From Escherichia coli (lineage in GTDB: Bacteria > Pseudomonadota > Gammaproteobacteria > Enterobacterales > Enterobacteriaceae), in the NCBI RefSeq assembly GCF_030013595.1, contig NZ_CP122768.1: a DNA stretch of 64,000 nt, one strand, 5' to 3'. Under the pieces are notes generated by a model, which had not been told where the DNA came from, searched no databases, and saw only the letters and a program-made list of their open reading frames with translations. The position numbers and the translations under genes are program-made. Below, piece after piece: positions 27,660-30,603 of this stretch; the stretch's first letter is position 1; each line of letters starts with the position of its first letter.

Positions 27660-29729
27660 ATGTCTGAGAAAACTTTTCTGGTGGAAATCGGCACTGAAGA
27701 GCTGCCACCAAAAGCACTGCGCAGCCTGGCTGAGTCCTTTGCTGCGAACTTCACTGCGGAGCTGGATAACGCCGGCCTCGCACACGGCACCGTTCAATGG
27801 TTTGCTGCTCCGCGTCGTCTGGCGCTGAAAGTAGCTAACCTGGCGGAAGCGCAACCGGATCGTGAAATCGAAAAACGCGGCCCGGCGATTGCTCAGGCGT
27901 TCGACGCTGAAGGCAAACCGAGCAAAGCGGCAGAAGGCTGGGCGCGTGGTTGCGGTATTACCGTAGACCAGGCTGAGCGTCTGACTACCGATAAAGGTGA
28001 ATGGCTGCTGTATCGCGCCCACGTGAAGGGCGAAAGCACTGAAGCACTGTTGCCGAATATGGTTGCGACTTCGCTGGCGAAACTGCCGATCCCGAAACTG
28101 ATGCGTTGGGGTGCAAGCGACGTGCACTTCGTGCGTCCGGTGCACACCGTGACCCTGCTGCTGGGCGACAAAGTTATTCCGGCTACCATTCTGGGCATTC
28201 AGTCCGATCGCGTGATTCGCGGCCACCGCTTTATGGGCGAGCCGGAATTCACTATCGACAATGCCGATCAGTATCCGGAAATTCTGCGTGAGCGCGGGAA
28301 AGTCATCGCCGATTACGAAGAACGTAAGGCGAAGATTAAAGCCGATGCCGAAGAAGCGGCGCGTAAGATTGGCGGTAACGCTGACTTAAGCGAAAGCCTG
28401 TTGGAAGAAGTGGCTTCGCTGGTGGAGTGGCCGGTTGTGCTGACCGCGAAATTTGAAGAGAAATTCCTCGCTGTGCCGTCTGAAGCGCTGGTTTACACCA
28501 TGAAAGGTGACCAGAAGTACTTCCCGGTGTACGCGAACGACGGCAAACTGCTGCCGAACTTTATCTTCGTTGCCAACATCGAATCGAAAGATCCGCAGCA
28601 AATTATCTCTGGTAACGAGAAAGTCGTTCGTCCACGTTTGGCGGATGCCGAGTTCTTCTTCAACACTGACCGTAAAAAACGTCTGGAAGATAACCTGCCG
28701 CGCCTGCAAACCGTGTTGTTTCAGCAACAGCTGGGTACACTGCGCGACAAAACTGACCGCATCCAGGCGCTGGCTGGCTGGATTGCTGAACAGATTGGCG
28801 CTGACGTTAACCACGCAACCCGTGCGGGCCTGCTGTCCAAGTGCGACCTGATGACCAACATGGTCTTCGAGTTCACCGACACCCAGGGCGTTATGGGGAT
28901 GCACTACGCGCGTTACGATGGCGAAGCGGAAGATGTTGCAGTGGCGCTGAACGAGCAGTATCAGCCGCGCTTTGCCGGTGATGACCTGCCGTCTAACCCG
29001 GTAGCCTGTGCGCTGGCGATTGCTGACAAGATGGATACTCTGGCGGGTATCTTCGGTATCGGCCAGCATCCGAAAGGCGACAAAGACCCGTTTGCGTTGC
29101 GTCGTGCCGCACTTGGCGTACTGCGTATTATCGTTGAGAAGAACCTCAACCTTGATCTGCAAACGCTGACCGAAGAAGCAGTGCGTCTGTATGGCGATAA
29201 GCTGACTAATGCCAACGTGGTTGATGATGTTATCGACTTTATGCTCGGTCGCTTCCGCGCCTGGTATCAGGACGAAGGTTACACCGTTGACACCATCCAG
29301 GCGGTACTGGCACGTCGTCCGACGCGTCCGGCTGATTTCGATGCCCGAATGAAAGCGGTATCGCACTTCCGTACCCTGGATGCAGCTGCAGCACTGGCGG
29401 CGGCGAACAAGCGTGTATCTAACATTCTGGCGAAATCTGACGAAGTGCTGAGCGACCGCGTGAATGCCTCTACTCTGAAAGAGCCGGAAGAAATTAAACT
29501 GGCGATGCAGGTTGTGGTGCTACGTGACAAGCTAGAGCCGTACTTTGCTGAAGGTCGTTACCAGGATGCGCTGGTCGAACTGGCTGAGCTGCGTGAACCG
29601 GTTGATGCCTTCTTCGATAAAGTGATGGTCATGGTTGATGACAAAGAATTGCGTATCAACCGTTTGACCATGCTGGAGAAACTGCGCGAACTGTTCCTGC
29701 GCGTTGCGGATATTTCGCTGTTACAGTAA
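27660..29729 (+). CDS. glyS: Glycine--tRNA ligase beta subunit
   Basis: 689-aa [27 protein letters not shown]... Confidence 0.95.
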
Positions 29730-29743
29730 TAACGCCATTATTA

Positions 29744-29773
29744 AAAAGCCTGCCATCTGGCAGGCTTTTTTAT
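29744..29773 (+). terminator. Rho-independent terminator of glyQS
   Basis: AGCCTGCC-ATCT-GGCAGGCT hairpin followed by TTTTTT. Confidence 0.7.
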
Positions 29774-29947
29774 CGCTAAATAATAGAGCAACCTTTAATA
29801 ATCTTCTGCTGAATAAAGATTGTCTCATATATTAATTTTATGAGATTTTTTTAGGATTATATCAAGGAGAAGAAACGAACTTATTAAGCTAGAATAGCTG
29901 CGGGTGCTTGAGACTGTTTGTCTCAGGTATTCACCGAAAGGCAGACA

Positions 29948-30012
29948 GAGAAAAGCCCCACCTGACTATAAATCAAAGTGAGGCTACCCTATGCCTGAAC
30001 ACCATAAGGTTA
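29948..30012 (-). ncRNA. sokA: Candidate Sok-type antisense RNA of the hokA locus (approximate ends)
   Basis: Minus strand opposite the mokA start and leader carries a TTGATT -35-like element and a short hairpin plus U-tract; placement is by analogy with hok/sok. Confidence 0.35.
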
Positions 30013-30203
30013 GCCTCTTACTCGTTGGAAATCAACACAGGAGGCTGGGAATGCCGCAGAAATATAGATTACTTTCTTTAATAGTGATTTGTTGCACGCT
30101 TTTATTTTTCACCTGGATGATAAGAGATTCACTGTGTGAATTGCATATTAAACAGGGGAGTTATGAGCTGGCGGCATTTTTAGCCTGCAATTTGAAAGAG
30201 TAA
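29991..30203 (+). CDS. mokA: Mok-type overlapping reading frame, in-frame N-terminal extension of hokA
   Basis: 70-aa ORF MPEHHKVSLLLVGNQHRRLGMPQKY... whose last 50 codons are hokA. Confidence 0.5.
   Translation: MPEHHKVSLLLVGNQHRRLGMPQKYRLLSLIVICCTLLFFTWMIRDSLCELHIKQGSYELAAFLACNLKE
30051..30203 (+). CDS. hokA: Hok-family type I toxin (small membrane peptide)
   Basis: 50-aa ORF MPQKYRLLSLIVICCTLLFFTWMIRDSLCELHIKQGSYELAAFLACNLKE; single transmembrane helix. Confidence 0.8.
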   Translation: MPQKYRLLSLIVICCTLLFFTWMIRDSLCELHIKQGSYELAAFLACNLKE

Positions 30204-30335
30204 GAGTCTTCGGCGGGAAGTTATTCCCGTCTTTCTTACGGCGTTGCGCATTCTCATTGCACCCAAATTTATTTTTCACAAAAATAATAATAGATTTTAT
30301 TACGCGATCGATTATTTATTTCCTGAAAAACAAAT

Positions 30336-30367
30336 AAAAAAATCCCCGCCAAATGGCAGGGATCTTA
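30336..30367 (-). terminator. Rho-independent terminator of cspA
   Basis: Minus-strand hairpin ATCCCTGCC...GGCGGGGAT followed by TTTTTTT, just after the cspA stop. Confidence 0.6.
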
Positions 30368-30390
30368 GATTCTGTGCTTTTAAGCAGAGA

Positions 30391-30603
30391 TTACAGGCTG
30401 GTTACGTTACCAGCTGCCGGGCCTTTAGCGCCGCTTTCGATGGTGAAGGACACTTTCTGACCTTCGTCCAGAGATTTGTAACCATCGTTCTGGATAGCAG
30501 AGAAGTGTACGAACACGTCTTTAGAGCCATCGTCAGGAGTGATGAAGCCGAAGCCTTTGTCAGCGTTGAACCATTTTACGATACCAGTCATTTTACCGGA
30601 CAT
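30391..30603 (-). CDS. cspA: Major cold-shock protein CspA
   Basis: 70-aa [41 protein letters not shown]... Confidence 0.95.

Follow-up and report, generated by a model that had tools for sequence, protein, structure and literature searches.

A wild-type, IS-free hokA/mokA/sokA allele at the usual glyS-cspA site of Escherichia coli, with predicted R1-like RNA control

Main finding

The segment between glyS and cspA in the 64,000-nucleotide stretch of Escherichia coli DNA analysed here (the window) very probably carries the chromosomal hokA/mokA/sokA type I toxin-antitoxin locus in its wild-type, IS-free form and at its usual site, with a control mechanism that, judged from sequence and RNA folding, resembles that of plasmid R1. 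IS-free hokA is common and has been known since 1999, and the window adds no novel element, mechanism or arrangement to what has been described; it does provide a handy natural template for asking whether chromosomal hok loci do anything. Below, we set out the evidence for the identity of the locus, for the conservation of its RNA control elements and for its relation to the IS150-disrupted alleles typified by K-12, and we weigh whether a structurally intact locus of this kind is also an active one.

Identity and setting of the locus

The spacer between the end of glyS (29729) and the end of cspA on the − strand (30391) measures 661 bp. A preliminary description of this DNA had put it at about 660 bp and free of any insertion sequence, and both points stand: the whole 666-bp stretch is collinear, end to end, with IS-free genomes and contains no insertion sequence. 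One RefSeq genome is 100% identical over the 666 bp, and its ORF is annotated as hokA (WP_001135727.1). Strain HCP5S3_I2 matches the window without a difference over these 666 bp. The placement of hokA between glyS and cspA is the same as in K-12 and E. coli C. Two nested reading frames occupy the + strand:

29991 to 30203, + strand: mokA frame, 70 codons, with a stop codon common to hokA; open in all IS-free alleles examined
30051 to 30203, + strand: hokA, the last 50 codons of the mok frame, encoding a 50-aa Hok/Gef toxin (MPQKYRLLSLIVICCTLLFFTWMIRDSLCELHIKQGSYELAAFLACNLKE)

These coordinates bear out the earlier proposal of a 70-codon mok frame with hokA as its final 50 codons, in that mok begins upstream of hokA, in the same frame and with the same stop, as is characteristic of hok/sok-type loci. 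The product scores 126.5 bits against the NCBIfam HokA equivalog NF007290 (cut-off 89) and matches Pfam PF01848 (HOK_GEF) at 1.7e-22 over positions 1-42 of the 42-position model. Together with the Rfam RF01794 match described below and the flanking genes shared with K-12, these results confirm the assignment to hokA/mokA/sokA, and a chance-ORF reading of hokA is ruled out by the NF007290, PF01848 and RF01794 matches. The boundaries first given, 29940-30240, needed revision: the elements placed there are present, but the true unit is wider, with its leader starting at 29902 and its fbi element at 30251-30264.

Several neighbouring features were recorded as well. A 23-codon ORF on the − strand (30180-30251, MRNAVRKTGITSRRRLLLFQIAG) is homologous to K-12 YsaE (b4793), runs antisense to the hokA 3′ end and 3′ UTR as far as the first base of fbi, differs from K-12 at 4 nt and is labelled a hypothetical protein by RefSeq in IS-free genomes. 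Over the glyS terminator hairpin, an Rfam STnc370 match on the − strand (29737-29803) stays below threshold (48.3 bits against a gathering score of 54) and is probably the glyS terminator only. The gene at 30391-30603 (WP_000014594.1) is named cspA in some genomes and cspE in others by RefSeq/PGAP; we call it cspA because the Rfam cspA thermoregulator matches at 501 bits. Elsewhere in the window, between yhjV-like and bcsG-like genes, lie two tandem type I toxin-antitoxin units of the ldrD/rdlD type (50074-50832), each with a 35-aa Ldr ORF on the + strand (50242-50349 and 50725-50832) and an Rfam rdlD match on the − strand (50128-50193 and 50611-50676). A single Ldr copy is present at this place in K-12 W3110 and E. 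coli C, and since two Ldr genes are annotated in the matching region of many other genomes, the tandem looks like ordinary copy-number variation.

Control elements of the hokA mRNA and the predicted fold switch

The Rfam model RF01794, named "sok", matched at 124 bits (gathering score 59) along its full length (1-157) to 29902-30053 on the + strand. This match, whose end coincides with the hokA AUG, lies on the strand that is sense for mok/hok, and hence detects the hok leader and not the antisense RNA strand. In and around this leader, the elements known from R1-type hok mRNAs were placed as follows:

29890 to 29895, + strand: candidate hokA promoter −10 element TAGAAT, 6 nt upstream of the leader start and aligned with TATGAT of R1-type hok
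29902 to 30053, + strand: 5′ leader of the hokA mRNA, bounded by the start of tac and the hokA AUG (RF01794)
29902 to 29913, + strand: tac, GGGUGCUUGAGA, predicted to pair with fbi in the full-length RNA and, after 3′ truncation, with ucb; invariant in 9 alleles
29909 to 29925, + strand: 5′ local hairpin UGAGAC-UGUU-GUCUCA, counterpart of the R1 metastable hairpin
29953 to 29961, + strand: ucb (anti-SD), AAGCCCCAC, predicted partner of the mok SD region in the full-length RNA and of tac after 3′ truncation; its AGCCCC is shared with the R1 type
29980 to 29983, + strand: mok Shine-Dalgarno (SD) sequence GAGG, 7 nt upstream of the mok AUG and sequestered by ucb in the full-length fold
30040 to 30044, + strand: hokA Shine-Dalgarno sequence GGAGG (GGGGG in E. 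coli C, UTI89 and others)
30212 to 30231, + strand: GC-rich 3′ hairpin, a terminator-like site stable in all folds; counterpart of the hairpin that ends processed R1 hok mRNA
30251 to 30264, + strand: fbi, UUCUCAUUGCACCC, complementary to the mRNA 5′ end and invariant in all alleles compared

Folds were computed for 29902-30266 as the full-length RNA and for 29902-30233 as the 3′-truncated RNA. In the full-length fold (z = −7.0), 11 bp of tac/fbi pairing and the pairing of ucb with the mok SD are found in both the MFE and the centroid structures, whereas the truncated RNA (z = −6.2) is predicted to switch to a tac/ucb stem in which ucb releases the mok SD. The two-state switch of the R1 type, from tac/fbi to tac/ucb upon 3′ truncation, is therefore reproduced at the level of in silico folding. 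A local terminator hairpin just after fbi was searched for, and none of note was found; the cspA terminator hairpin (30339-30366) has no T-run after it on the + strand.

On the opposite strand, the antisense partner was delimited by two elements:

29945 to 30003, − strand: Sok-A antisense RNA, about 58 nt, with a putative 5′ end and a 3′ end taken from the K-12 annotation
30007 to 30035, − strand: candidate Sok-A promoter, with −35 TTGATT (30035..30030), a 17-bp spacer and −10 TAACCT (30012..30007), placed by positional homology

The − strand from 30003 to 29940 spans the mok start and forms a hairpin followed by CUUUUCUCU (−27.6 kcal/mol, z = −4.6), and the annotated sokA remnant of K-12 maps without mismatch to 29945-29979 on the same strand. 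Of the preliminary picture of a Sok RNA crossing the mok start, the hairpin and U-tract are well supported by these data, while the promoter-like element is backed by homology and is not called by a generic scan. More specifically, TTGATT-17-TAACCT occupies the position of the antisense-strand TTGCGC-17-TATCCT of R1-type loci, inside the conserved block GTAAGAGGCTA.CCT; TTGCGC and TATCCT are what we take to be the actual R1 Sok promoter hexamers. A generic sigma-70 scan of 29700-30420 called no promoter for hokA or for Sok, and the two promoters are therefore placed by homology only.

From sequence and folding, we infer a mechanism in four stages and an outcome. A weak promoter would give rise to a hokA mRNA with its 5′ end at 29902. 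In the full-length RNA, tac would pair with fbi (30251-30264) and ucb would mask the mok ribosome-binding site, so that no translation takes place. Trimming of the 3′ end back to the hairpin at 30212-30231 would release tac to pair with ucb, a pairing expected to expose the mok start, with hokA translation being coupled to that of mok. Antisense Sok-A (about 30003 to 29945) would pair with the mok start region and lead to decay of the mRNA, such that HokA synthesis and damage to the inner membrane would follow only when Sok-A is exhausted.

Conservation of the control elements among alleles

The window was aligned with six IS-free alleles (UTI89, O55:H7, O145, 2015C-3101, KE47 and FP4) and two IS-deleted reconstructions, and later checks added E. 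coli C and two more IS-free genomes. The tac, 5′ hairpin, ucb, 3′ hairpin core and fbi elements are invariant in the alignment, as is the Sok promoter region, which shows no variation among the alleles compared. The IS-free alleles compared do not differ in tac, ucb, dcb or fbi, nor in the SD and AUG of mok. Ten IS-free alleles, E. coli C among them, have an intact mok frame together with intact tac, ucb and fbi; every IS-free allele also retains the 20-codon mok-specific part and an open hokA. Two allele classes are distinguished near the mok start, and it is there and in the AT-rich flanks that variation is concentrated. The RNA control architecture is evidently conserved: the pairing elements are invariant across divergent alleles and the surrounding spacer is variable, a pattern hard to explain without selection on RNA function.

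The same comparison bears on loss of function by small changes. Inactivating point mutations in the hokA leader or fold-back elements had been named beforehand as a finding that would speak against a functional locus; we looked for such changes in the pairing elements against the IS-free alleles and found none, with tac, ucb, SD and fbi untouched, and the allele alignments rule out inactivation by this route. A broader form of the idea, in which the locus is disabled by a point mutation such as F15C in the transmembrane helix or by changes in the 3′ UTR, seems to us very improbable. It draws on the fact that HokA C15 (F15C) is a minority allele, with the exact 61-mer found in 283 of 5426 genomes, and on three changes relative to E. 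coli C, namely two at 30246-30247 and a G-U pair replacing G-C at 30230. Yet the reading frame shows no stop, frameshift or loss of the start codon, the conserved Cys29 and Cys46 are retained, the HokA score lies well above the equivalog cut-off, and the predicted folds still switch, their tac, ucb, SD and fbi elements being unchanged.

IS150 insertions and the frequency of allele states

The contrast drawn earlier with K-12, where an IS150 copy was said to sit in hokA, proved correct, as a 1443-bp IS150 is annotated there. Alignment of the window with the K-12 hokA region located the insertion exactly, since BLAST aligns 29730-29979 and 30019-30395 with nothing between:

29980 to 30018, no strand assigned: 39-bp segment absent from K-12, with IS150 (1443 bp) in its place

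Missing from K-12 as a result are the SD and AUG of mok and nine more of its codons, along with the −10 hexamer and 5′ portion of Sok, and the intact hokA ORF of K-12 is separated from promoter and leader. The K-12-type disrupted allele, defined by IS150 in the Sok/mok-start segment together with the 39-bp deletion, is not what the window carries, and the K-12 junction is absent from it. In other respects, K-12 MG1655 hokA/mokA/sokA (b4455, b4647 and b4614) is the same locus with the same flanking genes, flanks that are 97-98% identical and a hokA ORF that is intact in both; HokA of the window differs from that of MG1655 by F15C, E36G and K47N.

A second type of insertion, exemplified by strain 23CRST022, has IS150 after window position 29980 in the orientation opposite to that of K-12, with an AAGTG repeat on both sides and no deletion; this allele belongs to the same class as the window around the mok start, and its sequence is intact apart from IS150. 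The K-12-type insertion, for its part, has the 39-bp deletion and no target repeat, and the left junctions of the two types are nearly identical. IS150 has entered the 40-bp Sok/mok-start segment independently at least twice, a recurrence that could stem from an IS150 hot-spot or from selection against an active locus.

To place these states in the population, we counted them over 5426 complete E. coli genomes:

121-bp core uninterrupted: 2800 of 5426 genomes
K-12-type junction: 1663 of 5426 genomes
opposite-orientation IS150 junction: about 1026 of 5426 genomes

IS-free is thus the commonest state of E. coli hokA, found in about half of the genomes, and both IS150 insertion types together account for ∼49%; hokA is wholly absent from a few genomes. 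The counts confirm K-12 as atypical: what E. coli most often carries is a wild-type hokA with the full set of R1-like RNA control elements. Two unusual arrangements were also seen: in strain GZ2408C, hokA is gone and an IS150 remnant followed by IS1 lies between glyS and cspA, and strain 43905 has ∼394 extra bp between hokA and cspA, with a 372-bp ORF annotated as yidD by RefSeq.

Is the intact locus active?

PMC3562002 places hokA/sokA in E. coli C, and PMC7232551 reports that hokA of AIEC NRG857c is free of IS, adding that in K-12 the loci have lost activity through IS elements, point mutations or rearrangement. Among intact alleles, that of E. coli C has been studied best, and we compared it with the window using the E. 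coli C genome record, not the clone of 1999. It likewise has a 661-bp spacer, no IS and the same mok frame, and its tac, ucb, mok SD and AUG, Sok region and fbi are identical. Over the whole spacer, the two sequences show 17 small differences, of which 6 fall within the transcribed unit; none of these 6 affects a regulatory pairing element. Those in the transcribed unit are:

30042: hok SD GGAGG in the window, GGGGG in E. coli C; also alters Mok (R18G)
30094: HokA C15 in the window, F15 in E. coli C
30194: synonymous difference from E. coli C
30230: 3′ hairpin G-U pair in the window, G-C in E. coli C
30246-30247: two positions that differ from E. coli C, between the 3′ hairpin and fbi

Pedersen & Gerdes (1999, Mol Microbiol 32:1090) worked on IS-free hokA from E. 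coli C. As that work is cited in a 2026 bioRxiv Hok survey, hokA (E. coli C), hokB (K-12) and hokC (ECOR24) were without post-segregational killing (PSK), the same three loci were without rifampicin activation, and the missing rifampicin activation led the authors to deem chromosomal hok/sok inactive. The 2026 survey also reports that over-expressed HokA is toxic. Because the IS-free locus of E. coli C is reported, in the cited form of the 1999 study, to lack PSK and rifampicin activation, R1-like activity is disfavoured even for intact alleles, and no feature of the window predicts an outcome differing from that of the E. coli C allele.

The suggestion that absence of an IS means the locus may be functional is accordingly only partly supported. 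The locus is structurally intact, with its pairing elements in place, and its toxin type is competent, as shown by the toxicity of over-expressed HokA; the step from "no IS" to "functional" is nevertheless weaker than implied, given that the IS-free state is common and that the E. coli C allele was negative in both assays.

We lean towards the view that the locus is intact in sequence but silent, either a conserved relic or a non-killing module, HokA being kept subtoxic by mRNA processing, by the relative half-lives of Sok and hok RNA or by the level of expression. This would agree with the lack of PSK and of rifampicin activation seen with the E. coli C allele, as cited from the 1999 work, and with the weak, non-consensus promoter region upstream of 29902. 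It would also agree with the intact hokA ORF of IS150-disrupted lineages such as K-12; because the ORF persists in such lineages, its integrity says little about use. What sits less easily with silence is the invariance of the long-range pairing elements across divergent alleles while the spacer varies, which would be difficult to account for if RNA function were not under selection.

The opposite view, that the locus is an active killer module in which loss of Sok-A, through transcription arrest or promoter deletion, triggers HokA synthesis and cell death as in R1 hok/sok, appears rather unlikely to us. In its favour, no regulatory pairing is disrupted, the window has the canonical hok SD GGAGG where E. 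coli C has GGGGG, over-expressed HokA is toxic, and R1 hok in single chromosomal copy is lethal without Sok. Moreover, the two kinds of IS150 insertion in the Sok/mok-start segment, present in about half of genomes, could be the mark of selection against an active locus, although repeated IS150 insertion could be no more than target preference. Against an active locus, hokA of E. coli C, likewise IS-free and distinct from the window at 6 positions of the transcribed unit, showed neither PSK nor rifampicin activation in the citations of Pedersen & Gerdes 1999. A stronger and decidedly doubtful version holds that intact hokA alleles are active and costly in nature and have repeatedly been silenced by selection, contrary to the inert view of 1999; in that case, the present allele, with its GGAGG SD and C15, would kill without Sok-A.

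Comparison with plasmid R1 hok/mok/sok (parB)

Compared with the R1 system, whose two-state hok mechanism is summarised in PMC9841398, the hokA locus found here differs in several respects. It is chromosomal, whereas the R1 locus is plasmid-borne, and its HokA is a distant paralogue of R1 Hok, scoring 53 bits against the Hok-subfamily model, below the cut-off of 73. Its leader is shorter than that of the R1 type (an 18-nt gap), unlike in R1 no terminator hairpin was recognised after fbi, and hokA loci are reported to lack PSK.

These differences contrast with the shared design of the two systems, which have the same gene layout, a Hok/Gef toxin and the same predicted switch from tac/fbi to tac/ucb. 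The leader blocks GCTTGAG, GGCAGA, AGCCCC, GAGGC and AGG.TAGCCTCTTAC are conserved between the window and the R1 type. Two of the differences between them are compensatory: the 5′ hairpin has GAGAC...GTCTC in the window and GAGGC...GCCTC in the R1 type, and tac/fbi pairs as GGGUGC/GCACCC in the window and as GGCGC/GCGCC in R1.
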